From Amoebophrya sp. A120 (Eukaryota > Protista > Dinoflagellata), in NCBI GenBank assembly GCA_905178155.1, contig CAJINV010000002.1, positions 7,470,743 to 7,534,742 of the forward strand: a stretch of DNA of 64,000 nucleotides, read 5' to 3'. Positions 1 to 50,202 of the stretch are shown here, in pieces; within the stretch, counting starts at the first letter, position 1, and each line of letters starts with the position of its first letter. Made by a program: the position numbers and the translations under genes. The notes under the pieces were generated by a model that was given only the letters and a program-made list of their open reading frames with translations, had not been told where the DNA came from and did no database searches.

Positions 1-3000
1 ACCGCAGGTCGCCAGGCTCCCGCGAAGCCGCGGGGTAGTTCTCCTTGTTGAACAGTTTACTTGTTTCCTCGACCTCTTTCTGGTTTCCCGCGGTTTCCTT
101 CTTGAGGTTTTCCCCGGGTTTGACCAAAACGTCGATGGAGCGGGAGGGTGCGGAGACGTAAATGGCCAGAAAGGAGGCGAATAAATGCAGGAGCAGCGAA
201 ACCTTTCCTGGGAACCAGGTCTGTCGCAGGTAGGAGTCCGCGCCGTAGGCGTATTTGCGCGGGAGTTTGTCCATCCTGCCCATGTGCGGCCCGCGCGACG
301 CAAAAATTGGCACCGTCGCGTCGGCGTTGCCGGCAGTCTCTTTTCTCCTCTGTTCCGCTAGTTCGTGTGCGCGCTTCTTCCACTTCAGTGCGCAGGCGCG
401 GACAAGCTCCTCGTGCTCGTAGAAATGCTCCACCTGCTGGTGCAACACACTGTGGTCCAGTTCCGCCATGAGACCGTCGGTCAAAATTCCTGCGAAGATT
501 CCCAGAATGGCGGGGCCCGCGAGAATCATAATCAGGAAGACGACGATGGTACCCTCGGGACTGTATTCCTTCACCATTCCCATGTTGCCTGTTGTGCGCG
601 AAAGGCGAAACAAGTGGGAAATACTCTATTTTCATTCTGTTACTGTTGTAACGCTTCTGAAGTGCAAAAACCCTTTATTTACTTCATGATGTGAACGAAC
701 ACGAAGGGGAAGGGGTCGCGATTGCCTCATGCGATGCAGCAAGAACCAAGACAAACTCACATTTGTTTGATAAGGAGAACAAAAAAAAGACTAAGAATAA
801 AAACAATCTAGCGCTATGACAAACGCTTCATAAGTGGCGCTCCTGTACTTACCAGTAAAAAGGCGGCTCGCGAACAGGCTTGCCATCCCGAAGCTGGTGA
901 AGCGCTGCGTCTCCCCCTCGTTCACGTTTCCGTTTTTCCGCTCGGTGAGAAAGACCAACCCGCCAATGACGAAAAAAATCATCAGGGCCAGGTAGTACGC
1001 GTGGAATAACGTCATCCGGTTTTTCCTCACCACATCCACGATGAGGCCAAACCCGGTATTGAAGGAACTGAAATAGAAGGCCGCCGCGAAGACGCGCGCC
1101 CCCATCAAATACTGCAGGTATGGCCGCACCAGGGCCGTGTTCGCGTTGTCCAGGAGCCGCATGCGGACTCCACCTAGCGTGAAGGAGAGCACGTGGGCCA
1201 TCCGGGGTAAAACCGTAAGTACCCACCCCCGCTGGACACATCAAGGCTCTTTCGAAGTAACGCATCACAAATTCGAGTCTGTGGTCGTGTAGACGTGGTT
1301 AGCTGCTAAAAATGGAGGCGCAATACACATCAACTGATAATGTCTGATCCTGGCTAGGGAATGAAAAATTGTTTTTACTACTTGGTTCCCGAACGTCATT
1401 AGATCCCACTCCCCATGGGGCTGCGAATCTAGCACACTCTGAGGAGCCTTAGCCTTTAGATTTAGATCATAATTTGCAAAAGAAATTATATCGTGGGGAG
1501 GATACGTTATCTGTCCCCATCAGGATATGCGTGATGATTGTGACGGTGAGGACGATGACCGTTCCCGCGTCCGGCTTTTTGATGGCGTAGTTGTAGAACA
1601 TCAACACCGGACTGACCCCCCTGCGATTCGGAATGTTGTTTGCGTACTCCACTTTCTCTTTCGACGACGTGCCCGGGGGCAGCCGGCGCCCGATCAGTTC
1701 GTCGTATTCTTTCCTCGACGGACTGTACAGGTACTTGGCTTTGTGGTAACTGTCGCCGTAGAAGTAGACCGCACACAACACGAGATAATTGTACAGGTAG
1801 ACGAGCAACACGAACACGTCGACCAGGAAAACGATCAGAGGCAGAAAAATGCGGAGGCCGTCCCGGGAAACAATGCCGGTGATGTACTTCATGCGGAACC
1901 ACTTCGAATCCGCGAGCTGCGGATTGACGGCCGGCCCGTACTGTGCGACCTCGTCCGCGAACTGCTCGAAAAATTTCTCCTTGGCTTTCTCGTTGTGTAT
2001 CGGAGCGACGTAGTGGGTTTCCACGGCGATCTCCGGGAACGCGGGTAGGCCCTTGCGGTAGGTGGTCTGTCGCACCGTGTCGTCTTCGAGCAGGACAAAG
2101 GGTATTCTCTGAAAATCAACCATCTGCATATTACACTGGTTTAAATGACAGAAGTCGCGACTTTGCAAAACTTTTGAAAAGGCGACCTTGCTCCGTGTTT
2201 TGCATAAAAAAGTGGATGGGGCGGGTGCTCCATTTTCAGGGAATAAAGGGCATCAGATCTCCGCAGTTCCAGGGCACGTCTTCCTTGTCAGGATCCACCA
2301 TGCGGATCGGCGCGTAAAACGCCGTGTAATCTTCTGTCGAAATGGACGGCAGCGGGTCTAGCAGAGTGGTGGAGCTCTTCGAGTTACCGTCTTCCGCGGC
2401 CTTTTTATCTTTTGCATCATCGCCGGCGTCGGATTTAGCTTTGTTCGAAGATTCTGCTCTACTCTGTTGCTCTTCCTGTTCCAGAGCGGAGGATGCAGAT
2501 GATCTACTTCTGCTTGTTGTCGCTTCAACAGCACGACGATCTTCGCGTCCGGCAACCGCAACCACCGCGAACGGTTCATCGCTGTTCCCTGCACCATCCC
2601 CCTGGTCGTTATTTTTAATGTTACCTGTATCGAGCACGTGGCGCACCTGGTCGCGCTGCTCCCTACTTCCGACAACCTCTCGCGTGCTCTCCAGACTTCC
2701 GCCCACCCCAAGATCGATCAGCGTCTTGCCGTCGGAGCTCGGGGTCTTCTTATCCGCGTTAATCCGCGCAGAGGTGAGGTCGGTGGAAATCAGTTTCTTC
2801 ACCTCTTTGTCCGGGGAAAACTCATCGCCCTTCGCTGCCTCCTCCTCCTCGCTGTGCCAAGACTCGCCGTACCTGCCCCCGTTCAACTCCCCGCTGTCGC
2901 CGTCCGCCCGCCACTGAAATTGCTGCCGCTTCTTCTCCACGCGGAGCCGCTCGTATTCCTCCTTCTTGGTCCGCTCCGCCGAGGCGTGGACCAGAAACGA

Positions 3001-6000
3001 CATGTCCGTCACATCCTTCGCACCCATGCACACGTTGGTAAAGAAAAACAGCCGCTCGAGCGAGGGCGCGCGGCCGTTCAGCAAGCTGTAGTTCATACTG
3101 AACAAGTGCTCGGTCCGCTGGGTCGAGGAGGTCACAAAATCCACGAACTGCAGCGTGTCCCCCGCCGGTTCCTCGCCTGCGGCTTTGCCTGTTTCCTCAG
3201 TGGCCTTTGTTTCATCTCCCCCCACTTCGCCGTCGCGATGGGACTCACGCAGGTGGAGCTCCAAGGCTGCTGCTGCACTGGCTGATTTTTTGTCGTCGTC
3301 TTTCTTGGCATCCGCTTTCTTGTCGTCGGTACTATCGTCTTTGTCTTTGTCATCGCCGTCATCATCCTCCAAATCAGCTTCTCCCGTTTTGATGCGGATT
3401 CGGCTACTTTTACCCAAAATGTCCTCGATCCGTTTCGGTGTTTTTGTGCTGATATCCAAGGACAGGGAGAATGGGTCGTTATATACGTACGCTACGCACT
3501 AGAACTGCAGCCCTATTTTTGAGCTAAAGAATCCTGCTCATACATCCGCGGAACTTCTTCATTTTTTTCATCACGCTAGAACAAAGTGAAGCAATTTCAT
3601 CAAAACTTACGTAACATAGCAACGCGGAAGCTGCAGCTCAACATCATAGAAGATCGCGCAACTACTACGACTCACTTGCATTGACCATGGATAGCTAACT
3701 CGAAGCAAGAAATCAGCATCGTGCAACTCGTCTCCGATCCCCGTTATTGCGAAAGGCTCGTATTTCAACCGGTCCAGCCCGCTCGTGTACACCTGCAGCT
3801 TTTCGGAGTCGTATCTTCGGAACATTGTGATGCCATCAGTGGAGAGCTTCAACTCGTCTGGGTTGAAGAAAGACTCCTCTTCCTGTAACTCCTCATCTGG
3901 CTCCTCGTGCAGAGATTTGTCGTTTTTGAAATCGACCACCGTTTGATGGAAATGCTCAGACAAGCCACCTGCAGATGAAGTCGCTGCCGACGCTTCTTCA
4001 TTTTTAGCTTCCGCTTTCTCTGCAAACGACGAGCTAGCTGGTGCAGCTTTTCTTCTCTTCGGCTGCCCGAGCTGCTCAATCAAGCGCCTGACCTTCCGAC
4101 GGTTTTCTTCGGGCGAATTATTGTGGTTGTGCTTGCGAGTGTGCTGTCTATGGTGCGTCGTGTGATGGGTCTGTGATGTCTGTAGAAGCGAAACAACGTG
4201 GCCGCGGTCGTCGGAGTCCGTTTCTAAGAACGACGATGCGCCTTGCTGTTCCAAAGCGCCTCTGTCTCGGCGGCCCGGAAAATCTCTACTATCTGCTTCC
4301 GTACCCGAAGCACTCCCTCTGCCCCGCAATATTTTCGCGAAGTCTGTCTCATCTTCTATCCCACTGCCGAATAGAACCTCCCACAATTTTGGCACGTGGT
4401 AGTTTGACAGCAACCCGAACATCGTTTCGGACTTGCGTTTCGATTCGGTCCACAGTTTTCGTCTCTGCCGTTGTTCACGGCGCGACAATTGCAGCATCGA
4501 CGAGGCTGCGGCCTTCTCCTTGCCCTGCGGCTTGGCGCCCGGCCCGTCCGAGACTTTTTCGCCCTTGATTTCCACTTCCGGCGGCTCCTCTTTCCCGCCC
4601 TTGATGGCGTCTGGCCCAGCCTCATCGCCGTCGTTATCGTACGGCTCCGTGGCGGCGTATGGATGTGTCAGAGTTGAAATCGACAAAGTTGAAATAATTT
4701 CTCATGCATAAAATGGATGCCAGTTGGAACCCAGATTTCAAGTTTTGCAAGACAAATTTTGGTGGTCACTAAATCCACTCTGTCATGCTTTTTAGGCAAA
4801 GAGGAGCGATTTTCTCATGCTACTTTAGCAGCTCGAGCTGTAACCCCAAACAGGCTTACAATCGGCCTCACTTGCCTGCTCTGCAACACACGTGCCTCGG
4901 GTCATGCATTTCATGCATGGCAAATCATTTCAACTTTGACGATTTCAATCCTGACACTCCCATACGGCGATGAGTTGGTGCGCCTGCATCGACCGGAGCA
5001 AGGAATCCTGACCGGGTACCAGCTCGGTCAGGTGGGCATCTAAGAGTGCGTGCTGGTACCAGGGACTGGAGTAGGCGTGGACGGCCCAGAACGAGAGGCA
5101 GATCGCGAGGAAACCGCGCCAGAAGTACCACAACCCGGGGCCGTGCATGTCCTCGAAAAACGTCTTGGTGCACCACTTCACAAACTCGCTGGTGTTGTTG
5201 GACTTCTCGATCCACTCCCTTTCCGGCAGCTCTGCCAACCGCACGTTCTCCGGGTCGTCCAACAGGCCGCGGTCCTCTGGTATTTCGGTTTCGTCCACGT
5301 CGAAATCGAAGGCGCTGGCGTAAATGCTGAACGAGATGGCGGCGATCACCGCGCCCACGGTGGAGAGGAACACGTTCCAGCCCCAGATCTGGTGCTGGTT
5401 GCCGGACTCCAGACTCACCATCTTCTGGAACATCTCCCACATCCCCATGTGCAAGGTATGGAAGCGTCAGGTTTGAAATCGTCAAAGTTGAAATGATTTG
5501 TCATGCAAAAAATGGATACCAGTTGGAAGCCCAATTTTCAAGCGGCGCATGACAAATCTTCGGAGCACCGGAATCCAATTTGTCATGCTGTTTGGGCACA
5601 GAAGACTGCTTTTGTCATGCTCTTTTAGCAGCTCTATCCCAAACCCTAAATAGGCTCACAATCTGCCTCCCTTGCCATCCCGGCAAGACAGGCACTTGAT
5701 GCCTTGCATTTTATGCATGGCAAATCGTTTCAACTTTGACGATTTCAATCCTGACAGATCCATACAAGGAATTGCAGTCGTACTGCTCTTCCGGCAGCAG
5801 TGCGTCGTAGGAAGACAGGTACTATCCTGTGCAAAAGTATCGTAGTCCTACTAATCGCATTCATGCATTACAAATGTCTTTCTCAAGTGGAATCCGCATT
5901 ACAAATTCTACATCTCTTGCTGAGGAGATTTGTCATGCGATTTATACTAGTACGATGCTTTTGCATTTCATAGATACAGGGTCGCGGAACCGAGCAGTAG

Positions 6001-9000
6001 GAAGCAAAACGCGAAAGCGTACGAAAACCGGAGCACGTGACGGTTGTTGTGGCAGCCGGTGATGATCGTGTTAATGGTGTTGTAGTACCGCATGGGCTTC
6101 TATGCATTTTTCACACATGTTTACTGCACACGTACCAAATGGAACAAATACGTCACAAAGGTTTAAAAGCTTGTCGGTGTCGTCACCATGCATTCTCAGG
6201 CTCATCAACGTTGGTCATTTCTTGTACGCCGTGCTGCATGGCAAGTTTACTGTGGATAGCTTGAAGAGCATCAGAATGCGGCCGCAAACGAGCAGCGTCA
6301 GAAAGGCGAGCTGCCGCTTCTCCATATCGTGCGGCGACTCCAGCTGGCACATGTAGCCGCAAATCCAGAAAAAGTCGGTCGGGTCCATGTAGGGCGGAAC
6401 ACTGGGCCACTCCTGGAAGTAGTTCTTCAGATTATTCGGCTTCAGGATTTCCCCGACCTTGCTTGCGGTGCCGTCGCCCTGCCCGATGATCCCAAAGAGG
6501 CAAATGACGAGGGCCAGGGCGGGTAGAAGCCAGGAACCCACGTCGACGAATCCGAAAAACGTGAAGGGGTAGTACGCGCAGTTGGCCTCGACCTCCTTGT
6601 TTCCCTCGGCCTGCCGCCTCCTGGCCAGGACGGAGGATTCGTTGTGCACTCGCGCAAAAAGGGCTATGAACTCGCAAAAATGGAACAGGATGATGAATCC
6701 CTCAGCGATCAGACAGTACTTGAAAATCTGCTCTGCCGGCTCGTCGGCAAATACATGCCGACTTTCAAATTCCTCATACTCGAAGCACGGTGTGGCGAGG
6801 GTGACGGGGATGAGGAACAGAAACTGAAGAAAAGTGTTGTAGACGGGGTGGTCCAGGAAGGTCACACGGCTCAGCAGCGTCTCCTTAAAGGTCTCTTCCG
6901 TTGATGCCGCGGCAGAAATGTTCAACCTGACGGCTCGTGATGAGTTACATGGTCTGACGGTTTCGTGACGTTTTGAAAAAAGAAAAGCGAAAATTTTACT
7001 GTGGCTCGGCACTACGATAGCTTCGGGCGATAGGCGGCAAAGCCATGCCGCGAAACACACCGCGAAGCACCATTGGTCCTACCCCAGGACAGTGTCTGCC
7101 TGGGGAGCGTGCACGCATGTCGCCACACGCGTTGAAAATTGTGTGGGCCCCCATAACACAAAAAGACGAAAGGGCAAACCCCAAATGCCCAACGACTGGC
7201 ATCCCACCAGCCAACGCAGGGGCGCGCAACGGCTGGACGTTGGCCATATTCTGGGTTGCCGCCTGACGTTTCCCATGGGCGCCTTTGGTGGTAAGTAGCT
7301 AGGTAGGCCCTCAGGTAGCCCAAGAATGAAATGACGCAATTTGACGGAATGGTGACAGAACCGTCACAAGTTGGAAGGCGGTTCCAATTTGGTTAGTGAC
7401 AGTTTTTCTTCCCCGATGGTATGCTCCGTTTTAGCGGAATTTCTGACGAAACCGTCACAAACCGTCAAACAACCGTCACAAACCGTCGCCAGAACGTCAA
7501 ATATCCTTCCCACAAACCGTCACTCATCTGTCACGAGACTACCAACCAACCAGCAAGGAGACACCACGGGTCCGTCAACCTGCGCGCCGAGCAAGATTGT
7601 GCACATGCTGTGCCCCCACTAAGCCGAAAGGAGAAGCGAAGCTTGCCGACCCCGCCTAAAGGGGAGGACGCCAAAACCCGCAACAAGGCAGGACACACAC
7701 CCAGAATCAAAACCGCTGCGGCTTGACCCTAGGATGAGCGCACCCGCGGCCCATATTTGGAACGAACCCGTTACACATCCACACACACCACAAAAACATG
7801 TGGGGATGGGCCCGGGTCAGCTCTGGAAATAGAAAGTTTTTATTTTTGTTTTTTTGAAATCGTCACCAAACCGGCACCTGAAAATTCTCATCCACCCCGT
7901 CGAGTCATAGAAATGGTCGAGCCACGTTGTTCGCTAGATCGCGCTTTCTCGCCGTCCTCGTCTGCCGCGTCGCCGTCGTTGTCTATGGAAGCGCTAGGTG
8001 GTGGGAAAACGAAGGACCTTCATCTTGTAATTCTATGTTGAGTGTGCGTTGCAATACAATCTTTGTCCTTGCTCCTGCTGTGCTACACACAAGCTGCTTA
8101 CATTGCAGGAGGCGTCGCCGCCGGTGGGGCTGGTTCTAGGCATAAGGACAAGTAGGAACCTCATCAGTACCGTTGCTGAAAGCATGACAGGCCCAGGCTC
8201 GCCACCTCGGTTTCTCGTATATAGTCGTACCCTAAAACAAAATGTCAGACTGCGCTTTTCCCGACAGGCAAAACTTGTGTTCGTGTGCCGTTTAGAAATT
8301 GTGGGTTGCTCTTCCAGAACAACGACTGCGTATCTTAGTGATGCAACGAATGTCGAGTGAGCGATGTCTTGTCCCAGCACCTTGTTACACACGGATTCAT
8401 ACTGTCCTCTTCCTTTGCCCCATCATCATCGTCGTCGCTGTCATCCACGGGCGGGAAACCGTATTCCAGATTGTGCACCTTTTGCAGCGATTCGACCACC
8501 AAGGCGCTGGAGCGCAGCGGTACGTGGGTGACCAGGTCCTCGACCTCCTTGTCCTGCTCCCCCAACAGCTCGTTGACGGTGTCGTGCATGTGCTCTAACC
8601 CGACATCCAGCACGGCCCCGAGAAATCCCGCGTAGCAACCCGCGTGCAGGTAGCACGCACAGAAAAACAGCACGGCAAAAAAGCCTAGTTGCGGCAGAAA
8701 GGAATCCGGTGGACCTAGCCCGATCAGCATGGTCATGCCGTAGGAAGTATCACGTACAAAAAACAAAGAATAACGGAGGTGGAAAACAGATTTGGTCATG
8801 CGATAACGGATGTTCATGTTGGTCATGCGATAGATGTAGTAGTAGTAGTGATTCCCAGCAAGGGGAGAGAAGGGGGCGCCAACTCTCACCTCACTAGCTT
8901 TTCACAACTTTCTTCATTGCGCGTTTGGGTTTGGGTAGATGCAGAAACAGAATCAATGCTTGTGATGAAGGCGTACCAGTAGATGTTTTCATGCGGTTTT

Positions 9001-10760
9001 CCTTTTCGTCATAAAGTAGTTTGCATCGGATTTACCCGAAAGATGGATCTGCTACTTCAGCTCGCTTATAATTCTTAGTGATTTCTGCGTGATAGTGAAT
9101 CGACCCCGCAATGGACTCTATCGTGGACACCTGGAACCGCAAGTATCTTCCGTACTCGTCTTTGGCGAACGCACGGTCGCTGGTGGGCTGAAAGGGTGCG
9201 TGCTTCTTGCCGTAGAAGGAATAGAGGTCGGACCCGTCCGCGAGCTCGTACCCGATCGTGCAGCGCTGCAACCACAACCCGATGCAGCCCTGCAGCAGCA
9301 GCGCGCTCAGGAAGATGATAAAGTAGATTTTCAGAACCGTTTTCTGGCTCTGCATGCAGTGCGAGATGATGTGCAGGAAGATGGAGTACTCGCAGCACTC
9401 GAGGAGAACGCGGAAGAGGAAAACCCAGCCTAGACTGCACAAGGCGTAGTGCTGCAAGGGCAGCACGTAGCTTGTCAGGTACTGCATCCACGACACCTTC
9501 TCGGGCATCAGGAGAAACCAAAAGCCGCCGAAACTACCGAGGAGCAACTCGAAGAGCGCGAAGTAGTCGTACCGAAAAAAGTGGTAAACGCCTTCCAGCA
9601 CGGTGGTCTCCGTGGCATTCTTCAGGTGGCGCTTGTCCTCCTGCCCGTCTTTTCGTTGGGCACGCATTTCCTTGACAAACTCCGGCGCCCCCCGGGCGGA
9701 CAAGGCGCGGAGGATCAGAAGACACGAGAACAGGGTCAAGGTGGCGAAGTCCCAAATGCGAAAGCGGTGGATGATTTGCAACGCGTGTGCGCTCTATCCA
9801 ACGGGAAAACTCAGCTCGTGTAACTGGAAGCAACCAAATAAATTATGAATATGCATCTCGAGGCGTCTGCGTCTGCATCAAACCCCCTCGGTACAACAAG
9901 GCAGAACCAATCGCAGTAGTTCCACATGGAGTTACTGACGTCGTAACAAAAGATACTTACACTAGTGTGGGGGACTAAAAGATCTCTAATATATGCTTTT
10001 TTTTTTCGGGGACCAGGCTTGTTGCTTTTTTTGTGTTGTTGACGAACGCGCGACAGTCCTTGCGAGCTGATTTTGGTCTTGCGTACATATTCGAGAAGAT
10101 AGGTATCGATGGAGTACTTCAAAAACAGATTCACCTGTGTGTAAGTGAGCGACAGTGGGGGAGGTAGTTTGAAGGACATTCCTCATGATCATCCTCTGGT
10201 CCACAACCGTATTAGGAACCACGAACCGAGAAAATGAAAATGAAAAAACCAAAACAGTGACGAGAACCGTATGTTGACTCTACAAGCTGAAGCTCAAATG
10301 CAAGAGTCGAGCCTTAGTACCTCGCACGTGGTTCCCTCCTGCCAGTCCGCCTTTGTGATACCCAGACAGGAATCGTGCATCGAGATCAAAATGGAATTCC
10401 TGCGCCAAAAATCGATCCGGAACTTTACCTGCGTGGCATAGACGTAGAAGTACAGGTAGAGCAACAGGTAGATGAGCTGGAACGCAATGACGAATTTGTG
10501 CTCCAAAAAAGCGTGCAGTTTGCGGGCAAAATCCATGTTCGTATCGCGATCCGGGGGACTGCTGCCTTGTGCGGTTTCTGCCACTTCGACCTGACCACCT
10601 TCGGCGGACGAGGCAACTTCGCTGACTTCCTCCTCAGTGTCGTACTCCTCCTCGGACTCAGACTCTTTCAGCGTCTCTCTCACCGACACCACCCGATCGC
10701 CAAACTGCAACATGGTTTCTGCCAGAGTCTCGCCATCCCAACGAAAAACATCCCCACAGC
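1..10760 (-). CDS. Divergent multi-repeat 6TM cation channel (Ion_trans superfamily, probably 4 repeats); multi-exon, 3' end outside window, 5' end uncertain
   Basis: Repeat I: S1 KLHAFLEHKFVIAFQLIYLLL (ORF 10294-10899), S2-S5 in 9032-9781, pore/S6 in 8335-8889. Repeat II: FLDHPVYNTFLQ...YYPFTFFGFVDV...GRILMLFK (6215-7060), S5 FSYAFAFCFLLLGSATLYL (~5980-6040), S6 in 4945-5454. Repeat III: 1467-2168, then GFGLIVDVVRKNRMTL...LVFLTE...RFTSFG (791-1201) spliced by GT-AG intron 589-852 to NMGMVKEYSPEGTIVVFLIMILAGPAILGIFAGILTDGL. A further S1-like helix YLRQTWFPGKVSLLLHLFASFLAIYV at ~150-230; frame open to position 1. Canonical intron 3499-3675 also joins ORFs in frame. Confidence 0.75.
2103..2245. 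mobile_element. Introner element (non-canonical intron), 143 bp
   Basis: TIR tattctctgaaaat / attttcagggaata (13/14); perfect 5-bp DR aaggg (2098-2102, 2246-2250); removal joins GDLMPF to VLLEDD in frame. Confidence 0.85.
4658..4964. mobile_element. Introner element family A, 307 bp
   Basis: ~55-60 bp imperfect TIR (tatggatgtgtcagagttgaaatcgacaaagttgaaa...); perfect DR cggcg (4653-4657, 4965-4969); removal gives MQAHQLIA-ATEPYDN. Confidence 0.92.
5457..5764. mobile_element. Introner element family A, 308 bp
   Basis: Colinear homolog of 4658-4964; perfect DR caagg (5452-5456, 5765-5769); removal gives EQYDCNS-LHMGMWE. Confidence 0.92.
5823..5972. mobile_element. Introner element family B, 150 bp
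   Basis: Ends tatcctgtgcaaaagtatcgta / tacgatgcttttgcatttcata; DR ggtac/gatac (mismatch at a Tyr wobble base); removal gives LLGSATL-YLSSYD; homologous to 44395-44544 and 49052-49196. Confidence 0.85.
6101..6258. mobile_element. Introner-like non-canonical intron, 158 bp
   Basis: Ends tatgca...tggata; DR gcttc/gcttg; removal joins RILMLFK to PMRYYNTINTIITG in frame. TIR otherwise weak. Confidence 0.7.
6928..7577. mobile_element. MITE-like element with short TIR, 3-bp TSD and subterminal repeats, 650 bp
   Basis: Ends tgacggctcgtgatg / caccacgggtccgtca; acc on both sides (6925-6927, 7578-7580); AACCGTCA(CA) repeats at ~7359 and 7450-7523, with inverted TGACGGTT/TGACGTT copies at 6955-6972; GC-rich interior. 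Confidence 0.65.
9795..10085. mobile_element. Decayed introner element, 291 bp
   Basis: Left end tatccaacgggaaaactcagctcg vs reverse complement of right end tacgcaagaccaaaatcagctcg; DR decayed; removing element+5 nt joins DTYLLEY to AHALQIIHRF. Confidence 0.7.
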
Positions 10761-10823
10761 ACCATGATGTCAACGAGGATAAAATGAATCTTGAAGCTCG
10801 TCCTCGCGGTAGAAACTTCGACA
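10761..10823. repeat. Copy 1 of triplicated host segment (has a 4-nt insertion, gaat)
   Basis: accatgatgtcaacgaggataaaat-gaat-cttgaagctcgtcctcgcggtagaaacttcgaca; otherwise identical to 12073-12131. Confidence 0.95.
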
Positions 10824-12072: not shown

Positions 12073-12142
12073 ACCATGATGTCAACGAGGATAAAATCTT
12101 GAAGCTCGTCCTCGCGGTAGAAACTTCGACATGGATCTTGTT
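12073..12142. repeat. Copy 2 of triplicated host segment (empty-site, IE-less form)
   Basis: Reads ...aacttcgacatggatcttgtt, which is copy 3 with the 13387-13495 element and one DR copy removed. Confidence 0.95.
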
Positions 12143-13336: not shown

Positions 13337-13505
13337 AGGATAAAATCCTGAAGCTCGTCCTCGCGGTAGAAACTTCGACATGGACCTATCCAGGAAAAAA
13401 CACCCATCCCCATCCAATTTGTCATGCAAAACATGTATAAAATCCACTATTTGCCATGCAAAAAATGGATGGGGATGGGTGTTTTTTCCTGGATAGGATC
13501 TTGTT
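13337..13505. repeat. Copy 3 of triplicated host segment, interrupted by an IE
   Basis: aggataaaatcctgaagctcgtcctcgcggtagaaacttcgacatggacc-[IE]-ggatcttgtt. Confidence 0.93.
13387..13495. mobile_element. Introner element, 109 bp, perfect 30-bp TIR
   Basis: tatccaggaaaaaacacccatccccatcca and its exact reverse complement; DR ggacc/ggatc; empty site visible at 12131-12142. Confidence 0.95.
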
Positions 13506-27111: not shown

Positions 27112-27417
27112 TATGGATGTGTCAGGATCGAAATCGACAAAATCGAAGAACTTGTGATGCATAAAATGTAGAGCACTGAAGGCCTGCATTGGGCAGCAGG
27201 CATATGAGGCCGATTGTGAGCCTGTTTTGGGGTATGCAATGCGCAGCCAGAGTAGCATGACAGGAGCAGTCTTCTTTCCCCAAACAGCATGACAGACTGG
27301 ATTTTGGTGCTCCCGAAATTTGTCATGCGCCACTTGAAAACTGTGGCTCCAACTGACATCGATTTTGTGCATCACAAATTTTTCGATTTTATCAATTTCG
27401 ATTCTGACACTCCCATA
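27112..27417. mobile_element. Introner family A copy outside coding sequence, inverted relative to 4658/5457, 306 bp
   Basis: TIR tatggatgtgtcaggatcgaaatcgacaaa / attctgacactcccata; perfect DR tagac (27107-27111, 27418-27422); interior matches the reverse complement of 5457-5764. Confidence 0.92.
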
Positions 27418-34942: not shown

Positions 34943-37419
34943 TCACGTCAAGCTCGTCCGAAAGAATGGAATCCAGCCCCGCACCGTCCTACGCACCCAC
35001 CCGACGTCACTCCCGTCGATGCCGCAAACGCTTGCTGACGGTGTGTGTTTCGTGGGGTTACCGCAAGGGGGGCTGGTGGTCGGGCTAGTAGTACAGGTTG
35101 TACTAGTGCAACTTGTGTTGCTATTCGTCGCGTTCCCGTTGCCGCCCCCTCGCTTCAACTCCTCGACGTTCAGTGCGACCTTGTCCTTGATCTCCGTAGC
35201 TTTCAACTTCAGTCTATCATATGTAACAACGTCCCCAACTCCCAACCCCAAGACTTGTCATGCATAAGCATAAGCTGTGTTTCACGCGTAGTCCCATGAC
35301 GAGCGGTTTCTCATGCTGTCTGGGACTTTTACAGCTTTTTCATGCAGCTCTAATCAGCGTAAGACGCTAGATTTTTTGTGATTTGACGTCACTAGCCATC
35401 AAACACGACGATACTAGGGACCCAAACTTATTACGCGTGACTCCTCAATCTTCTCCATTCTTGTAGTTCGCAGGGTCGCCATCTTGAACGCTCTGGTGAC
35501 TGTACCTGTAGGGACGTTTTCACACAGGATACAGTTCGTCCTTGAATTCCGACGTCTTTTCCTTCCATTCCGCAGTTCTCAGCCGCAGCTCGTCGACCTC
35601 GTGGGAGACTTTGGATTTGATTTCATCGACCTCGTGGGACACTTTGGACTTGATCTCCGTCACTTCGTGCGAGACCTTCTCCTTCAGTTCGCAGGACTTC
35701 AGATCCACGTCGTGGAGAATCTCCTCGGCCTTGTGCGTGATTTCCTCGGCCTTGTTGGACAACACCCGGACGTATCAAACGTAAAAGTGTCTGGGTCTGG
35801 AAGATTCTGAGATTTGTCATGCATGTTTTGCATCACCCAGGATGTCTGTAATGCACGACCGCGCATCACAGATTTTAAGCTGGCTTCCTGATGCCTACTC
35901 CGCATGACAAACGCCCTCCCCGCGTAGCACAAACTAGACTCCTCTTGCTGGTCATGCAATGCAGATTTTTCTAGAGTCCAAATTTAGCATCACAAGTTCC
36001 AATGTTCCAGACCCAGACATTTTTACATTTGATAGGACGAAATCGTCGGTTTTCTCCCGGGTTTTCTCCTTCAGAAAGCTCGCCTCGTGCTGCATCTCCT
36101 GCAAAAAGTGGTCCCACTGCTCCCGGGGGATGAAGCCGGGGCTGGTTTCCCGGCTGGTGAACTCGATTTTTTCCTTCATCACCTCAAACCCGATTTTCGC
36201 CTTGTCCTTGGCGCGATTCAGAAACTGGTTCTCCAGGATGCCCTGCAGGTAACTCGTGCCCATCCAGCTGGAATACGTCGCCGCGGGGGAGGCAGTTGTT
36301 GAACTGGAACCTACACTAGAAGTAGCAGCTGCTTCACCACCTGCCGCGGTCGAGCCGCCGCCTTGGTCGCATGCTTGCGGCATCTTCAACCTATCGCTGC
36401 CACTAGTACTGGCGCTCGACAAAGTTGTTGTATAAGCCGCTGACGAATCTTCTCGTCCCGCGACTAATCCTGCAGCACCAGGACCTGGCGCTGAAGTCGA
36501 CTCTGCAGGTATGGCCGAGCCTGCCGGTGACGTTGTTGTGATTTCGGTCGTAGCAGCTCCTATGGTCCCTGCCGCGGCCCCCCTCGCAGCGGTTGATGTC
36601 GCGGTCATTGCAGCTGCGGACCCGGACGTGGTCGCTTCTGCTCCAGCAGATGCATTTCGAGGACTTCCGTTGGGAATAATGCAACTAGAGCTGCTGCTGC
36701 CTCCGCTCGAGCCGGTCCCAACCATCGCTGACGCCGTGTCCGGCTCGCCACCGGGTAGTTTCACGCGGATGCCGATGCTTGCCTGGTACAACGTCTTCGA
36801 GGGGTCGTCCGGGTGAACCGAATAGGTGCAGGTCTCCTCGGTGCGAAGAAAGCGCAGCAGCCCGAGATTCCGACTTTCGAGCGTTAGCGTCTTGTTCTTC
36901 ATATCCACCAGCGTGTCCTCGACGGCCAACCCGCGCATCTAATCAGGGTTTACAAGAAGTACAATCGCTGGGAGAATTTAATTTCAATTTCGCTCGACGT
37001 ACAAAGAACTACGAAAACACCAGAAACTGCATACTGTGACACATCTGATCTACGACGCAAAATTTCGAAAATGTTGGCAATGTGTGGAAGTGGAGAGAGG
37101 CACGATCTCGTTCTAGCCTGCTCTTCAAGATAACCATGCTATTATTTTTTTCATCTCGCGTTCTACTTCATCAACCCGAGGAGTTGACAATCTATATTAC
37201 CTTGCATCCGAATAGCTTCTCGATCCACGAGGGCATGGCATACTCCAGCGCCAGGAGTCGCCGGGTCCGCAAAGTTTGGTTCTCCGCGTCGACTTCCCGC
37301 GCGATAGGGTCGACGGACTTCACGTTAGGCGCCTGGGCGTTCGGATACTTTTGCCAAAAAGCTGCAGTGACATCCTCCCACCGGCTCTCATACACTTTCG
37401 TCTCTTCCTTGTACTTCAT
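34943..37419 (-). CDS. PRELI/MSF1 (Ups/Slmo-like) lipid-transfer domain protein with C-terminal 11-mer repeats
   Basis: WEDVTAAFWQKYPN...VKSVDPIAREVD...LRTRRLL...PSWIEKLFG, then EDTLVDMKNKTLTLESRNL...EETCTYSVHPDDPSKTLY; GT-AG intron 36939-37200; two IEs removed in frame. Confidence 0.88.
35215..35531. mobile_element. Introner element, 317 bp
   Basis: TIR tatcatatgtaacaacgtccc vs tatcctgtgtgaaaacgtccc; DR cagtc/cagtt; removal gives FKDEL-KLKATE. Confidence 0.82.
35581..35680 (-). repeat. Three coding 33-bp tandem repeats (KVSHEVxEIKS)
   Basis: KVSHEVTEIKS KVSHEVDEIKS KVSHEVDELRL in ORF 35520-35765. Confidence 0.85.
35773..36034. mobile_element. Introner element family C, 262 bp
   Basis: 34-bp TIR (31/34) tatcaaacgtaaaagtgtctgggtctggaagatt; perfect DR ggacg; removal gives TDDFV-RVLSNK; homolog of 44594-44861. 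Confidence 0.92.
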
Positions 37420-40043: not shown

Positions 40044-42540
40044 TCACAAAATGACACAGCAACCTCCACCAGAGGGCGGTGGCGGTCGCGTCGAACTTGC
40101 CGCCCGGAGTATGCAAGGAAAAGTCTTCTTGTTGTTCTGCTGGCGGACCCTGCGACTTGATGTCTTGAAGACTATTTAAAAATTTTCTTTCCCGCTGTAA
40201 TGTGGTAATGCATTCTGATCGAACTCGCTCTCGCAGAAACAAGGTGTTCGCTCCTAAAAGCTAAAGCAGCGGCCAAACCAGCCGGCTTATAAATTATATT
40301 CGATCAGTGCTCGTGTAGAGCTAGAGAGAGACCCACACCCACGTCCTGCCAAGAACAAGAAAGTAAACGCTTCCCTTTCATACCCCCGCCCCCCGCCACG
40401 CCGTTGGCGTTCATAGGTTGTTGCACTATGGCAGCACCAGGACCTCCCCCGCCAACCTGGACCGGCTGGAACAGCTGCACGTTCTTCATCATGCTCGGCC
40501 CCACCTGGGAAACCGTGCCGCCAAACCCGTTCACCGAGGCGAGACAGCCCTGCACGACGCTGGGCTGCGTGGCGACGTTGCCGTGACAGCCGACCCCGAT
40601 GGTGTTGAAGACCCAGGACCCCCGGACCGGGCCGCGGAAGATCCGGGCGAAAATGAGGCAGCTGGCCAGGACCGTCTGCTTCTGCAGGCAAAACCGGCAA
40701 AATTCATGCTTGTTTTTCGCTGCGCAGAGCCGCACATACGCGTCGGAAACGTGCTGGAAGGAGCTATCCAGGAAGAAAACTGCGGTAGTGTAGGCGTCTT
40801 GGCGCAACAACATGTTGACTTCATCGGAAACATACGGGGTAACAGCATGATAAATTTGTTCAGAATAAAGCTCGTCTGTCATACGCAGGTAGCACATGAA
40901 AACACGTACGAAATTAATGGGACGCTAAGCCAAAGCCTGGCGAGCATGACAAGTACGCCTAAGGATAGTATCGTATGTATATGTTGCATAGAGGTTTGGA
41001 TTACAGACTCACACTTAATAGGCAGTCTCTCTTGCATATGAGTGCCGGGAACTGTACACGTTGACCACGACGTACATCTGCGCGACAACGGGCGGCAGCC
41101 GGTCGAGATCCAGATCGATCTTCTCGTCGTCGCCCTTCCCGGCGCCGGTCACGTTGTCCCCGTTGTGCCGGACCGCGCCCTGGAGGAAGGACAAATTTGC
41201 GTAGTTCACCACGTCGATCAGGTTGTTTTGGGCATCGAAAAGCAGCACGGAGGCATCCAAATCCACGCCCCCGCGGACGCCCGGCGTCTCCCACCCGAGG
41301 CCGATGAAGAGGTCCGAACCGTCCTGGAAGAGGTGCTGGGGGATCTCGAGGAAGTCACCCTTGCTCATGTTAAACTTCTTGTCCATAGACATGATCATAT
41401 TCGTCGATGCGGGGTCCAGAATACCCGAGATATTCAACGCCCGACGCACGTCCGGCAGCGATTCCTCGAAGTTTCTGCCTTCGGGTATGAAAAAGAAGTA
41501 GAGCGCGGATCGCGATAAAGTAGGATCGTTGAAGTTGTAGAGCTAGAGGAGTACTACCTCAAGTTGAAGTTCGAATTGACGATCATAGACATAGATGAAG
41601 ATTTGTCAAGTCATTTTTAAAAAGAATCTTTATGTCATTTCTATCGTCTCAAATAAATGGTGACGCTTTCTTCATCATGCTGAACCTTGTAGTGTATGTG
41701 TAGTATGGAGACATACGAGATCATAACAAAAGCAAATCGTGCAAGCCGTCTTGGTTTTGGTATCAATTTCTTTTTCATCTTTACGTCGCTGTCCTCTGCA
41801 TCTTCACACGACAAGCTCGGCCCAAATTCCGAAACTTCCAGGCGTGATTCTTTAGGATTGGATTGCGTGGAAATGGAAATGTTGGACTTTCGTATGTAAA
41901 ATAATTTGGGAGAAGCTACGAAAAAAAGTCTAAGCGAAAGTTGTCCACTTGCACAAGCAAGTCAAGAGTATAGAAATACATCCTCGACCCCCGGTGGCTT
42001 GTACAGAAACCCGAGCACCATACCGGTGAAGTCTCCCTTCCGCATCGTAACCGGGCACACGGCCAGTGGCTCCGGCTTTCCAACCTCCAAGACTGTGACC
42101 TTCGCGTTGGCGACGCTGCTCAAATTTCCGCCCTTGAAAGCGTTCAGGACGAAGACCAGGATGGACACTCCCGGATGCACGAGGTCGATGTCGATCTGGA
42201 CGCTTTCGTCGAACCCCGCACCCACTCCAGTCTTGTTGTCGCCCGAGTGCATGATAGCCCCCGCCATGCAGATCTGCTGGTTGAAGTAGCAGGCGTCCAA
42301 AACCTGGCCGCCGGCGTTGCAGCACACGACGGAGCAATCCAGATCCACCGGAGAATTTCCCTCGACGAAGTCCCAGGACAGCCCCACGGTCAAATCGTGG
42401 CCGTTCGGACTCAGATACACATTCACGTCCGTCCCACCCACCTGAGCGACGCGATCATCCGACGGTGGCATCTGGGAGGCGCCGCCCTCCATCTGGAGGC
42501 TGATTTCATCCGGGTTCGCGATTTCGCCCCTTGGGTACAT
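40044..42540 (-). CDS. Double TerD-domain stress protein with C-terminal CaaX (GGGCCVIL)
   Basis: LTVGLSWD...VDLDCS...HSGDNKTGVGAGFDESVQIDI and FIGLGWE...VDLDAS...HNGDNVTGAGKGDDEKIDLDL; mini-exon NHAWKFRNLGRAC (~41810-41849); IEs 40765-41038 and 40110-40382 removed in frame. Confidence 0.9.
40110..40382. mobile_element. Decayed introner element, 273 bp
   Basis: tatgcaaggaaaagtctt vs tatgaaagggaagcgttt; DR decayed (sense GGGGG/CTCCG); removal of element+5 nt yields ...GGGGAASSTRPPPPSGGGCCVIL*. Confidence 0.75.
40765..41038. mobile_element. Introner element, 274 bp
   Basis: tatccaggaagaaaactgc vs tatgcaagagagactgc; DR ggagc/tgagt; removal restores the TerD motif VNVYSSRHS-FQHVSDAYVRL. Confidence 0.8.
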
Positions 42541-43621: not shown

Positions 43622-45984
43622 TTATGACCCGAACAACGCTGATCCGGCGCCCCGCATGTTCCCTCCACCTCCCCCGTTCGCCCTCGCGCCGCCGGGGCGG
43701 AAGAACGAGTCGTAGGCTTGCGTCAGTATTTGCATTCCCTGCGCCACGGCCGGTTCCACGAGGGGCTTCACCACCGGAAGCACCATGTCCGCAACGGGTT
43801 TCAGGATCGGCTGCACCAGCAGCACGTTCGCCAGATAGATGCTACCACCGGCGGCACCTGGTGAATATTTTTTTTTCAACATCGAAAGCTGAAACAAGAT
43901 TTACCAGCATATGAAGCCTAGCAAGCTCAAAATAGCGAGAAGGGCACTACCAGCTGCAAATTATCATTGCACTGGTCGAGCAACCACGTCGTCAAAACGC
44001 ATCAACATCCACACTAAAAATTCATTTCCCATGAGTACCTATCGCCGGCAGGAAGGGTTCTGCCCCCACTGCGTGCACGGTGCGCGTAACCGCCTCGGCG
44101 CCGTAGAGATAGAATTTCCCGATCTGGAACAGCGTGTAGGCGGATCCGACGCACGCGCCAACCCCCGTGAAAACCGCTTGGGAGAGCATCAGATACCCGT
44201 CGTACGCGAGCACGTCCGGCGTCGTCGAATACATGTAGCAGGCGGCCGCGGTCCCCGCGGTCGCCAGCGCCGCGTTTCGCTCCGCACGGTGGATGTTCTT
44301 GGACTTCCGGGCCAGACACGCGTCGAAGACACAGAACGTGTTCAAAAACAGCCTCAACCGGTCCATTTCCGCCGCGCGGTCGTCCGACACGGCCTATGCA
44401 TTGCAAAAGTATTGTATTAGTGTAAATTGCATTACAGATTTTGGCAAGAAGGAAAATGGAATTTGTAATGCTGTGTTGCCTTAGGAAAAAAATTTGTCAT
44501 GCATGTTTGCAATTCGTACGAGTACGATACTTTTGCACAGGATACGGCAAGCATCTCCGCCATGTTCAAGAAACACTGCTCGTCATCGGTGATTATCGAC
44601 TGCAAAAATGTCTGCGTCTGGAAGATTGCCAGGTTTGTCATGCATATTTGAATGACCCATTACGTCTGTGATGCATGCCCTAGCATCACAGATTTTTAGA
44701 GGGCTTTGTGATGCCTGTGCCTCTACCGCATGAGAAATGCCCCCTCTCTGTAGCACAAACTGGAGTCCTCTTGCTGGTCATACAATCCAAATTTTTTTTG
44801 AAGCCAGAGACAGCATTACAATTTTAGAATCTTCCAGACCCAGGCATATTTGCAATCCATAGTGATCTCGATGATCCCGAGCGTGTCGCCGTGCGGCGGG
44901 TTGATGATCAGGGAAGGGTGCCAGGGCTTCAGAATCTTCCACGTCTTACCGCCAGCGCAATACTTTGAACCGATGGTGCCGCCGGTCCACCACGCGCCGC
45001 TGTCGTCCTTCAGTTCCGTGCGGAGGATGGGCATCTCGTGGGCGAAGTTGGTGAAAGGTATCCTGTGCGAAAATTGTACGTAGTACCGCAATAGTCGTAC
45101 AAATTGCAATCTTGGTCTTGCGGGTCCTCGCCTGGTTGTGTCGGCATTTTTACCTAGTTGACCTGGAAGGTTTTTCACATGCAATTTGTACAACTAGTCT
45201 GCGATCTAATCATAATCTCTATGCAATGCATAATGTCCGGAACAAACTTGTTCGACTGGAACACCGTGTACTCCGCCGTTGCGGGTTTGTCATTGTCGTC
45301 GTTCCACTTCATGTTGATGCGGGCATGGACGTAGAACGGCACGGAGTTCTGCATCTCGTCCTTCACCGCCTGCGGCATGTTGTCGATCGACTCGTCGGCC
45401 CCCGTCCCATCGTCCAGTTGCTGGTCCGGATAGGATTTCTGGGGCAGATAAATGTGGTACGCGGGCTCGATCGTTCCGTTCAACCACGAGTTCGACTTAT
45501 TCGCGGCCACATCCGGGCGCTGAATGATCGCGACCACCTTATTCGTGGTAGAATCCCTTATGAAAACGCACAACTTATCGCCATTTTTCGTCCCAGAGAA
45601 GCTGTGCGCGTCAATCTTCCACTGCGGCTTTACTACGGTTTTTGTGCTATGCTCCGACGGCTTCGCGTGCATCTGCATGGCGAATCGCCGTCCTTCGTTA
45701 ACTTTCAAAGGGTCCAAGACCTCCCTGTAGTAGCTATTCCCACCCGCCTTGGTAAATTTGTCCCCGAGCTGCTTAAACTCATACGCGACAGCCTTTCTGT
45801 AGCTGAATTCGGCCCGCTTGTCCCACGGGCGGAGACATGTATCGACCGCGGTAACTTCGTGGTGGTGGGCGATTTTAGGAGCTTTGTCGTTTCCCTTCTT
45901 CGTCGGGATCGCTGGCGACTTCGAGGACGAACTCCCGGTGGAGCCCCCCTTGGTCTTCGATTTTGATTTCGCCATCTTTGCCAT
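43622..45984 (-). CDS. Hypothetical protein; N-terminal half possibly tubby/LURP-one/scramblase-like, hydrophobic C-terminal helices
   Basis: ORFs 45175-46026, 44816-45193, 44432-44641 (part), 44022-44390 and 43622-43897 join in frame via three IEs and GT-AG intron 43858-44038. Fold guess rests only on motifs such as IRDSTTNKVVAII and YHIYLPQKSYPDQ. Confidence 0.65.
44395..44544. mobile_element. Introner element family B (inverted), 150 bp
   Basis: tatgcattgcaaaagtattgta / tacgatacttttgcacaggata; DR cggcc/cggca; removal gives AEMLA-VSDDR. Confidence 0.88.
44594..44861. mobile_element. Introner element family C, 268 bp
   Basis: TIR tatcgactgcaaaaatgtctgcgtctggaagatt; perfect DR gtgat; removal gives GIIEIT-DDEQCF. 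Confidence 0.92.
45059..45232. mobile_element. Introner element with decayed DR, 174 bp
   Basis: Ends tatcctgtgcgaaaa ... gcaatgcata (family B-like termini); removal of element+5 nt restores frame NKFVPD-x-TNFAHE. Confidence 0.7.
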
Positions 45985-47307: not shown

Positions 47308-50202
47308 TTACATCTGGGATAGGATCTCCAAAGCTTCCTTCAGAGAGTCGATCTCCTCCTGGCGTTTCTTCTGCTTCTCCTCGAAAGAGACACCTGGAAA
47401 GTTTTTTGAAAGGTTGAAAGGAAAGGGAAACCGATGTCGGTGAAATTCAGGATGTCATTTTGCTTTCTGAACTCCAAATACAAGCAGTTTCACAATTCAC
47501 GAGAATGCCTACAAGCGCATCTTCTATACCCTTGGCGATGCACTTGGGGTCGATGACCTCCCGCTTTTCCTTCAGGTGGTTCTCCAGGGTGGCCTTGTAC
47601 TCCTGCAGGGCATCCTTGGCGTTCAGCAGGTCCTCTTTCTTCTGCGCCAGGTCCTCCTGGGTGCTGTTGAGCGAGGATTCCTTGCTGGCCTTGGAGGTTT
47701 CCGCCTCCGTCATGAACTTGTCGTGCGCGGTGGCTGCCTCGGACTCCGCCGTAGTGGTTTCGCGGATCAGCTGGTCCATCTGGGACTTGATGACCTCCAA
47801 CAAACCCAAAACGCCGCCGCCGCCCATGCCCTTGTACTCGCCGCCCTCGAAGGCCGGCTGCTTCACCTGCAGGAAGGCGCCCTCGACCTTGCTGTAGTAG
47901 CTCTGGAGCACCGTCATGGCCTGGTCCACGGCCTTGGACGCCGCGGTGGTCTCGGTGATGGTCTTCTCGTTGTCCGCTTTCTCAGTCGCCCGGTTCTTCT
48001 TGGCCTCGGCCATATCGAGCTTCAACTGCGCAATCTCCTTGGTGAACTTCTCCTCCGCAGCGGTCAGCTGCTCGACGTTGGAGGTCAACTTCTCCACCTT
48101 GGTGCTCTCCTTCGCGACCTTGGATTCGAACTCCTCGATGGCAGCCTTGTTCTCAGCCATCTCCTTGTCGCACATGCCCTTCTTAGTCAGCTCGGCCTTC
48201 TCCTCCTCCTTCAACTTGTTGATCAGCTCCTGGATCATCTTGCGGATCTTCACAAACGGGTCGGCTTCGGCTAGTATGGGATGGAAAATGAGAGGAGGTT
48301 TCGGTAGGATCCGTGATAGAAAAGTGTGAGCAGACGTATGCCAAGAAAAGCAACGTGGCTCGCGGCTAAGAAACATTGCATGCAAAGAAAAGTGGATCAT
48401 GAAACATAAGATATCCTTTTTCAGCATCGCATTCGCAGCTGAGTCAATGCATGAGCATGTCTTTATCTATGACTCCACCAAAACATCACCCACATCTCGT
48501 CCCCATTTCATACCAGATTCCGCGAGTTCCATGAGGATCTTGGAGTGCAGCTTCGCGCCCCGGGAGCGCAGGAAGTTGGTCAATTTGTTATCGCTGTCGT
48601 CGTTGCCGGCCTTCTTGGCGGACAGCTGCAGGAAGGAGCCGAGCGATTGGGCCTCATCCAAGTGACCACTGCCGGTCTGCACTTCCGGGGAGCTCATGAT
48701 GGAGATGGCCTGGGCGATAGCCTCCAGTTCCTCTTCACGGGACTTTTGCCGGGCTTCGTAGTCGGTGGTCTTCCGTTATCCATAGGAAATCTACCAGTAC
48801 CCTACAGGACGTCCCAATACATGGCAAGTAGATATGCATGATGTTGCCCTCGGTACGCAATTTTCTTCCCACACTCACTTGTTCGAGTGCATACTTGCTA
48901 AAAATCGTCGCATACTCCTTGGTCGAAAAAAACGACTTCAGACTACGCCTCTCTGCTTCTGCGTCCTGTACGGTATAATAGATTTGCAAAACGTATCTGC
49001 TTGCAGTCACCGACGATCTCGGCCAGGTACTTTTTGTCGTCAGCCATGAACTATTCTATGAAAAAGTATCGTACTCGTACTGCAATCATGCATCGCAAAC
49101 CTTTTTTGTAAGGTAAATCAGGATTACAAATTTTATTTCTCATGCTTAGGAAATTTGTGATGCATTTACACGAGTACAATACTTTTGCAGTTCATATGGA
49201 CTGCTCCTCCGTGGTCAGCTCCTTCTTGGCGTTCCCCTCGTCCGCTTGCGCGGTGGACTTGTTCTCGGTCTCGGCAGCCTCCATCTTGGCGGCGGCCTCC
49301 TGCTTCTGCGTAGCGTCCTGCATGTTCATCTCGAAGTGGTGCTGCTTCTCGGATTCCTCCTTCTGCAGGTCCTGCTTCTCCTGCGTGCTATGCAACACAA
49401 AACTGTATCGCAATAGTGGAAATCGAAATCGAAATAATTGTACGTACAAATTATTTTCGCACGTTTTCATCCGGATTCAGACAGAAAAATGCGTTTTTCA
49501 TGCCACAAATTCGCTACTCCCACAAACACGATATAACTTTTGCACAGGATACTCAAAGTCTTTCTGCAGGTCCTGGACCATCTTGATCACGGTGTCGGAC
49601 TGGCGCTCGGAGGCGGAGGTGAAGGGGTCCTTCACCTCTTGCAACGTCTGCATCAGACTCTGGACTGCGTCCCAGTGCTTGCCGACGCGGCCCTTGTTGG
49701 ACAGCTGCAGCAGGGAGACCGCGGCCTCCTTTTTCTCCGGGACGGCGGACAGGACTTCGACGGCCTTGTCGCAGGCATAGATGGAATCGGACAGGTCGGT
49801 GTGCTCGGCGACGAAGGCAGCGTTCTCCTCGGCCCGCACCTTCTTCATGGCCTTCTTGTTTTCCTTCATTTTCTCTTGCGTGTCCACCGCCTCGTTGATC
49901 GCTTCCGTTGCGGCCGCGATGCGCTCCTGTGCGTCGACGATCTGCGCCTGGAACTGCTGGATGGCGCGCTCGGACTCCTTGATGTCGGCTTCCTTCTCCG
50001 CCTGCGTGTCGGAGCACCATGTGTTGAAGGCCGCGAACGCGACGGATTCCTCCTGCTTTTCCTTCTGGCCCCGGCCCTCCATCTCCTTCAACATCTCGAT
50101 CACCTTGTCAATGGCCGCATTCTTTGCTGACTCCAGCTGCTTCAGATTCGTCGCAGAAGCGCTGGTGGCCAGCGCCGAAAGAGCCACGAGGGTGGACCGC
50201 AT
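47308..50202 (-). CDS. Secreted all-helical coiled-coil protein of an abundant dinoflagellate family (trichocyst-matrix-like, tentative)
   Basis: Signal peptide MRSTLVALSALATSASA; two homologous halves (AIDKVIEML...WC / DPFVKIRKMIQELI...MCDKEM) each ending C-x-RxEE(L/I)xxLxxA(I/L)xI; strong C/G third-position bias; five introns, four IE-derived, plus GT-AG 47394-47529. Confidence 0.8.
48275..48512. mobile_element. Decayed introner now forming a canonical GT-AG intron (48271-48513)
   Basis: Residual TIR tatgggatggaaaatgaga vs tatgaaatggggacgaga; intron = G + element + CTAG; gives ELAES-AEADPF. Confidence 0.65.
48777..48995. mobile_element. Introner element, 219 bp
   Basis: Shared inverted core aaatcta...tacc.tacaggacg; DR tccgt/tctgc; removal gives GDCKQ-KTTDYEAR. 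Confidence 0.78.
49052..49196. mobile_element. Introner element family B, 145 bp
   Basis: tattctatgaaaaagtatcgtactcgt / acgagtacaatacttttgcagttcata; DR tgaac/tggac; removal gives TTEEQS-MADDKKYL. Confidence 0.88.
49389..49551. mobile_element. Introner element with decayed DR, 163 bp
   Basis: Ends tatgcaacacaaaa / ttttgcacaggata; removal of element+5 nt gives LQKDFE-QEKQDLQKEE. Confidence 0.75.

Follow-up and report, generated by a model that had tools for sequence, protein, structure and literature searches.

The window analyzed here, a 64,000-nucleotide (nt) stretch of the genome of Amoebophrya sp. A120 (assembly GCA_905178155.1, contig CAJINV010000002.1, positions 7,470,743 to 7,534,742 of the forward strand), carries 25 introner elements of the TAT...ATA type, 23 of which are intronic. 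We found that 11 of them are absent, together with exactly 5 additional nt (element+5), from contigs that are likely RNA, at non-canonical junctions, and that the cut likely falls 1 nt before the opening TAT and 4 nt after the closing ATA. The elements are the introners already published for the same strain. A 216-amino acid (aa) exon of a coiled-coil gene in the window is 100% identical to the protein P0001, whose source label is Amoebophrya sp. A120, and its A25 orthologue shows 74% identity. Together with the end motif and the direct repeats, this identity bears out the initial annotation, which had recognized the elements as the Amoebophrya introners of Farhat et al. 2021.

Exact Removal of Introner Elements

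Contigs of X1 and X2, two runs that are likely RNA, were aligned to positions 1-16000, and 15 of their joints are considered here; 6 further joints lie outside this set. Eleven of the 15 correspond to elements, and each of them skips exactly element+5 without being GT-AG on the coding strand. Seven of these elements were among the 21 that the initial annotation had listed (nine of the 21 lie in this range), and four, named here like all others by their first position, are new: 1199, 3453, 8748, and 13905. All 11 are on the minus strand: 1199..1527 (329 nt; a 334-nt skip in X1/X2 with contiguous contig coordinates), 2103..2245 (143 nt, skip 148), 3453..3693 (241 nt, skip 246), 4658..4964 (family A, 307 nt, skip 312), 5457..5764 (family A, 308 nt, skip 313, with GT..AG on the non-coding strand), 5823..5972 (family B, 150 nt, skip 155), 6101..6258 (158 nt, skip 163), 8748..9094 (347 nt, skip 352), 9795..10085 (291 nt, skip 296), 13905..14250 (346 nt, skip 351), and 15204..15399 (196 nt, skip 201). 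The 5-nt direct repeat is matched at 5/5 positions in 2103, 4658, 5457, and 15204, at 4/5 in 3453, at 3/5 in 1199, at 2/5 in 8748, and at 1/5 in 9795.

Two further joints are minus-strand introns of the canonical GT-AG type (589..852 and 10135..10320), which fix the coding strand and act as controls, the first also for RNA origin. A single contig lacks, one after another, a canonical intron and three elements, with contiguous record coordinates. The joints 4657/13386, on opposite strands, and 5844/5936 were set aside as likely derived from other family copies. Of two raw-read runs, X8 yielded 0 reads and X9 yielded 241, all of them on a TAG microsatellite near 8840.

Reading frames and proteins extend this evidence to the rest of the window. 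Long open reading frames (ORFs) of 1714, 543, 468, 466, and 686 aa are rebuilt by removal of element+5 and not by removal of the element with 0, 3, 4, or 6 additional nt; for these other lengths, the ORF of 1714 aa falls to 614-711 aa, that of 686 aa to 274-442 aa, and one of 485 aa to 192-203 aa. The 485-aa ORF arises when the frame-restoring end of 14518..14727 (minus strand, 210 nt, repeat 1/5) is placed at 14727; retention of this element gives 352 aa. In the coiled-coil gene, P0001 is consistent with removal of all four minus-strand elements, namely 48275..48512 (238 nt, repeat 1/5), 48777..48995 (219 nt), 49052..49196 (family B, 145 nt), and 49389..49551 (163 nt, repeat 1/5). Similarly, a gene model at 44-46 kb lacking the minus-strand elements 44395..44544 (family B), 44594..44861 (family C, 268 nt), and 45059..45232 (174 nt, repeat 1/5) is collinear with the protein P0019 across three junctions, with 51% identity over 402 aa and a 2-aa gap near 44395. 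The minus-strand element 40765..41038 splits a TerD domain into Pfam halves 4-114 and 119-181, and its removal rebuilds the domain in an alignment without a gap. Near the end of the TerD gene, 40110..40382 (minus strand, repeat 1/5) is likely an introner: its removal gives a C-terminal CCxx, as in the homologues P0012 and P0013, and its retention gives an ORF of similar length, so that the frame does not discriminate here. The TerD and P0019 homologues are too distant to constrain the cut register; the window's own TerD protein was absent from the results of the TerD homologue search, and no homologue of the 45385-45984 exon emerged from a search among longer proteins. For 35215..35531 (317 nt, in a PRELI-domain gene) and 35773..36034 (family C, 262 nt), both on the minus strand, as for 14518, the evidence is the restored frame.

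Removal as claimed in the initial annotation was supported for 19 of the 21 listed elements, 7 by contig skips that are likely RNA, 9 by proteins, and 3 by the frame alone; the remaining two, 13387 and 27112, were not confirmed as introns. Element 13387..13495 (109 nt, with a long perfect inverted repeat) lies outside ORFs in a repeated block, with no ORF there and no joint among the 15, and 27112..27417 (family A, repeat 5/5) has no ORF of more than 89 aa across its junction and no demonstrable host gene. As for the conserved domains said to be rebuilt, TerD (40765) and the coiled coil (P0001) were, whereas the label "channel" found no Pfam support in the exons scanned.

Geometry, Families, and Internal Motifs

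The shared geometry proposed in the initial annotation, TAT...ATA ends with a 5-nt duplication, proved real and looser than described. All 21 listed elements start with TAT; GTA instead of ATA closes 3 of them, and the repeat is matched at 5/5 positions in 7, 4/5 in 6, 3/5 in 2, and 1/5 in 6. Over the 23 intronic elements, 74 of 115 duplication positions match. When TAT..ATA pairs separated by 80-600 nt were sought, with a minimum of 9/14 inverted-repeat matches and a flanking repeat of 4/5 or better, 13 pairs emerged in the window; 30 local shuffles averaged 2.8 pairs and reached at most 8. The profile of 50 ends (T 0.95, A 0.95, T 0.91, then A 0.64/0.72/0.86 at positions 11-13) is that of the A120-type inverted repeat, i.e., TAT, about 7 variable nt, and an A-run. 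Scanning the window with this profile revealed no further convincing elements.

Three multi-copy families were confirmed: A (4658, 5457, and 27112; 73-78% identity), B (5823, 49052, and 44395; 75-77%), and C (35773 and 44594; 77%). They hold 8 of the 25 elements, and the remaining 17 are singletons within the window. Copies of A and B do occur in both orientations in the DNA, since 27112 is inverted relative to 4658 and 5457, and 44395 relative to 5823 and 49052. For family A, this statement holds at the DNA level only, because of the missing frame across 27112.

Several observations on sequence composition may be added. Paired high-scoring end motifs with 1-2/5 flanking matches at 21251-21457 and 22144-22334 could be old elements. 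An internal motif, GCATGACAA and variants, recurs in families unrelated to one another, frequently some 40-50 nt from an element end (5498-5506, 13419-13427, and 35815-35823); 35 of its 43 matches in the window lie inside elements, which make up 9% of the window, with the variants chosen after inspection. GCATGAC has 21 copies inside elements and 5 outside. The shared motif may be a binding site for a transposase or another protein. In 19 of the 23 intronic elements, ATA is directly followed by G or C, for which target preference or selection on junction redundancy may be considered. Rfam gave no matches.

Position of the Cut

A perfect duplication lets the junction slide over six positions; the cut is constrained because decayed duplications show which copy survives in the contig. 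Offsets were counted from the T of TAT in the mRNA sense, and 15 ranges were available, 11 from RNA and 4 from protein. Offset -1 fits all 15, whereas offset 0 (a flush cut) fits 13 and offset -2 fits 11. Among the RNA ranges are those of 5823 (-1..+1), 8748 (-1..+2), 9795 (-1..0), and 13905 (-2..-1), the last being the sole RNA junction that excludes a flush cut; the protein ranges are those of 48275 (-3..-1), 48777 (-2..0), 49052 (-2..+1), and 49389 (-1..0). At 48275, offset 0 would replace an alanine that is present in 8/8 aligned proteins. The intron is thus likely N-TAT...ATA-NNNN, a register that we call -1/+4; it rests on few junctions, about six of them discriminating, and is possibly new.

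The claim that most elements offer no GT-AG pair was confirmed, with 20 of 23 intronic elements lacking GT/GC/GA-AG in any equivalent register, and as a class the elements do not show the GT/GC/GA donor and AG acceptor of U2-type introns. The GT-AG pairs that do occur, in 14518 and 48275, are both exactly in the -1/+4 register, and an equivalent GC-AG occurs in one element, 44395. At the sense 5' end, all 23 elements have T, A, and a pyrimidine. All 23 also share an A located seven bases ahead of the acceptor, though 19 of them were chosen through that end. Offset -1 places TAT at donor positions +2..+4, as in GTA, which points to a relaxed spliceosome. A drift toward canonical sites was considered and found unsupported: G at -1 occurs in 5/7 decayed elements and 5/16 others, a difference without statistical significance (p=0.17), and an acceptor AG in 4/23 elements in sense and 3/23 in antisense.

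Published junctions are compatible with this register. In Table S4 of Farhat et al. (PMC7789003), T occupies +2 in each of the nine non-canonical types that predominate in A120 (GT, CT, AT, and TT), none of which begins with TA, and all nine A25 types begin with TT. Counts from seven large published families (1,994 splice sites: GT 27%, AT 18%, AG 29%, and AC 18%) agree with the model, yet they are inseparable from aligner preference. We found no statement of a fixed register or a branch point for these introns in the literature covered, although one may exist in figures (Farhat Fig. 3 and S19-S25), in further dataset rows, in bioRxiv supplements, or in subscription papers. A fixed register and a dispensable duplication may therefore be a small advance over the published system.

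Insertion and Mobilization

Element 13387 can be compared with a paralogous block near 12135 that lacks the element and has a single copy of the 5-mer; in this one case, the empty and filled pair demonstrates that insertion duplicates 5 bp. The region 10770-13500, where contig depth is near zero, contains an approximately 50-nt block in three copies at intervals of 1308 and 1249 nt, the spacers being GC-rich, and 13387 sits in the third copy. Its two plus-strand ORFs gave no Pfam match, and the repeated block is possibly a decayed mobile element.

The statement in the initial annotation that no mobilizing machinery is known is partly outdated. In the table of Gozashti 2025 (PMC12130899), A120 family 38 is labelled "Ginger, 5-bp TSD, TA/TA termini" (TSD, target site duplication), so that a candidate mobilizer is already in print; the text of the same paper, however, describes family 38 as lacking homology to known Gingers and their termini.

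Proposed Mechanism and Alternatives

The elements may be viewed as short non-coding sequences with TAT...ATA inverted ends that likely spread by DNA transposition, with a 5-bp target duplication generated by an enzyme that would most plausibly be an integrase-type (Ginger-like) transposase acting in trans. In the -1/+4 register, TAT would occupy intron positions +2..+4, the place of U-A in the canonical GUA donor, and the first intron base (+1) and the last two bases would be target-derived and variable. Since splicing takes out element+5, any target regains its coding sequence. The two ends have one motif in common, so that a donor would be available in both orientations, and orientation independence would follow from this symmetry. 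After insertion the duplication would decay, as would the predicted stem in old copies, with splicing remaining exact; it is thus likely that short end motifs and a distance, not the repeat, are what the machinery recognizes. We regard it as fairly probable that a relaxed U2-type spliceosome performs this reaction, taking donor +2 U and +3 A from TAT and placing the acceptor by distance from the closing motif. More tentatively, the Amoebophrya spliceosome may have dropped the +1 G and the terminal AG altogether, reading an N-U-A donor and an acceptor set by a ruler four bases past ATA, and possibly branching at the invariant A seven bases before the acceptor; the symmetric ends would then be transposase sites and complete splice signals at once, making removal scarless in either orientation and any target.

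The window offers a weak test of the orientation-independent removal claimed in the initial annotation: one inverted copy, 44395, is intronic, but it has the GC-AG register, and 27112 adds nothing for want of a host gene. Elements with no more than 1-3 matches among the 5 duplicated bases (1199, 8748, 9795, and 13905) are still spliced exactly, which indicates that the direct repeat is an insertion footprint and not a guide.

Several points weigh against a relaxed spliceosome acting in a fixed register. X1 and X2 are only guessed to be RNA and represent one sample with no DNA control, and the flag "between: not known" is carried by 7 of the 11 RNA joints, among them all those that bound -1. 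P0001 is an annotation and not a read, and the ends of elements lacking RNA support were picked partly by frame. The splice position relative to the hairpin is called "variable" in Fig. 3 of PMC7789003, and the types of Table S4 depend on aligner placement of ambiguous junctions, CT-AC being GT-AG reversed. No transposase was found among the 32 ORFs of the window.

A paired terminal stem, rather than end motifs, might position the cuts, with or without a spliceosome (e.g., by a structure-specific nuclease and a ligase), as proposed for euglenid nonconventional introns. We consider this unlikely, even though young elements fold strongly (z of -7 to -13 for 4658, 5457, 35773, and 44594), predicted terminal pairing probability is at least 0.5 in 13 of 23 intronic elements, and Watson-Crick complementarity holds at the three outermost positions in 22, 22, and 20 of 23. 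Farhat et al. (PMC7789003) also proposed that hairpins join exon boundaries, and they did not find U1 small nuclear RNA (snRNA) in A120, which has nearly all spliceosomal proteins and the U2, U4, U5, and U6 snRNAs. However, four of the 11 RNA-supported introns (1199, 6101, 9795, and 15204) have a predicted terminal pairing probability of 0-0.1 and fold no better than shuffles, so that a terminal stem in all spliced copies, the euglenid-type feature, is absent by prediction. Moreover, positions 4-7 pair in just 9-15 of 23 elements, the sense strand is not predicted to fold better than the antisense (mean first-position pairing 0.56 and 0.51, respectively), and the cut is asymmetric about the stem, with TAT aligned with donor +2..+4. 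With the repeat matched at 1/5 in 6 of 21 listed elements and no predicted stem in 4 of 11, neither looks necessary. Removal "guided by the terminal stem", as the initial annotation put it, is unsupported in that form; the idea is weakened rather than refuted by these predictions, because folding of old elements can miss protein-stabilized stems.

Less probable still is a default cut that is flush (0/+5), or that varies between -1 and 0, with a one-base shift when a GT donor is available. Both junctions that exclude a flush cut, 13905 and 48275, have G at -1, and a flush cut shifting whenever GT is available would also fit 15/15. In addition, duplication position 5, at which a match renders -1 and 0 equivalent, is conserved in 19/23 elements and position 1 in 10/23 (Fisher p=0.013, a post hoc single test), and this better-kept position would suit a cut wavering between -1 and 0. 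Against such a cut, a single -1 rule needs no exception, and no TA-starting type is found among the nine predominant A120 types of PMC7789003, which include CT-AG, AT-AG, and TT-AG. The -1/+4 register accounts for the ranges with one rule.

Stems with direct repeats favor template switching by reverse transcriptase, and the evidence from contigs of guessed RNA status with no DNA control leaves room for this artefact or for alleles of precise DNA excision. Either is highly improbable, because skips are exact at repeats of 1-3/5 without a predicted stem, the serial skips of one contig include a canonical intron as well as elements, conserved proteins require removal, and 66,565 introns have RNA support, more than 60% of them non-canonical (PMC7789003).

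The window is a dense, real sample of a published system in its original strain, in which old elements with decayed duplications are natural markers of the cut position. If -1/+4 holds genome-wide, tens of thousands of "variable" junctions would be reduced to one rule and annotation could be fixed. The register, if true, gives predictions on the donor +2 U, the branch position, and changes in U6, U5, and Prp8, and a +2 U/+3 A rule would unify A25 (TTA ends and TT-starting introns) with A120. It also makes the question of how splicing proceeds without GT-AG or a detectable U1 snRNA testable with existing data.

Neighboring Genes

Elements are clustered in some genes and absent from others. Region 1-7080 becomes a 1714-aa open frame with several hydrophobic segments once seven elements and one canonical intron are removed, and the exons tested gave no Pfam match. 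At 40050-42580, two TerD-domain ORFs adjoin on the minus strand, and the spliced one ends in CCxx, which we take to resemble a lipid-modification motif. Removal of 27112+5 from 27030-27610 leaves a protein-like frame of 89 codons on the plus strand and one of 83 codons on the minus strand. Long minus-strand ORFs free of elements are found at 22279-25437 (1052 aa, with CCCH zinc fingers), 27710-33025 (1771 aa), 52813-57930 (1705 aa), and 58710-61046 (778 aa).

Comparison with Known Systems

The closest system is that of Farhat et al. (PMC7789003), who reported 29,850 introner copies in A120. Organism, ends (an inverted repeat of TAT, about 7 nt, and AAA), direct repeats of 3-5 nt (including a 5-bp example), a mean length of about 240 nt, and non-canonical junctions are all alike, and a transposase was reported as not found in A120. 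In the text and legends of that paper, the splice position is variable or unknown, whereas the junctions of the window fit one register, -1/+4, and their repeat is a constant 5 nt that decays. Among the 41 of 58 A120 rows of Dataset S2 of Gozashti 2025 (PMC12130899) that are covered here, most families are classed as terminal inverted repeat (TIR) DNA elements, and family lengths of about 107, 149, 260, and 305 bp occur, similar to those described here. The class and the 5-bp TSD and TA/TA termini of family 38 are also shared, with the window families compared by description only; the window elements have no ORF, and the published automated calls of splice-site origin vary by family. The strains Kv and AT5 use GT-AG (PMC12005148).

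Outside Amoebophrya, the introners of Micromonas and Aureococcus, which are derived from miniature inverted-repeat transposable elements (PMC11282704 and PMC9860276), are likewise non-autonomous TIR elements that create target duplications and alter the mRNA little or not at all. Their splicing uses GY and AG sites that they supply or co-opt; in contrast, the 20 of 23 window elements noted above have no such pair in any equivalent register. The non-canonical introns of Fritillaria borealis and the nonconventional introns of euglenids (PMC11282704) resemble the window elements in being transposon-derived, with TIRs and TSDs, and in being removed without GT-AG. Fritillaria borealis, however, keeps AG-AN motifs, unlike the window elements, and euglenid introns keep a conserved terminal stem, whereas several RNA-supported introns of the window are predicted to be stemless.

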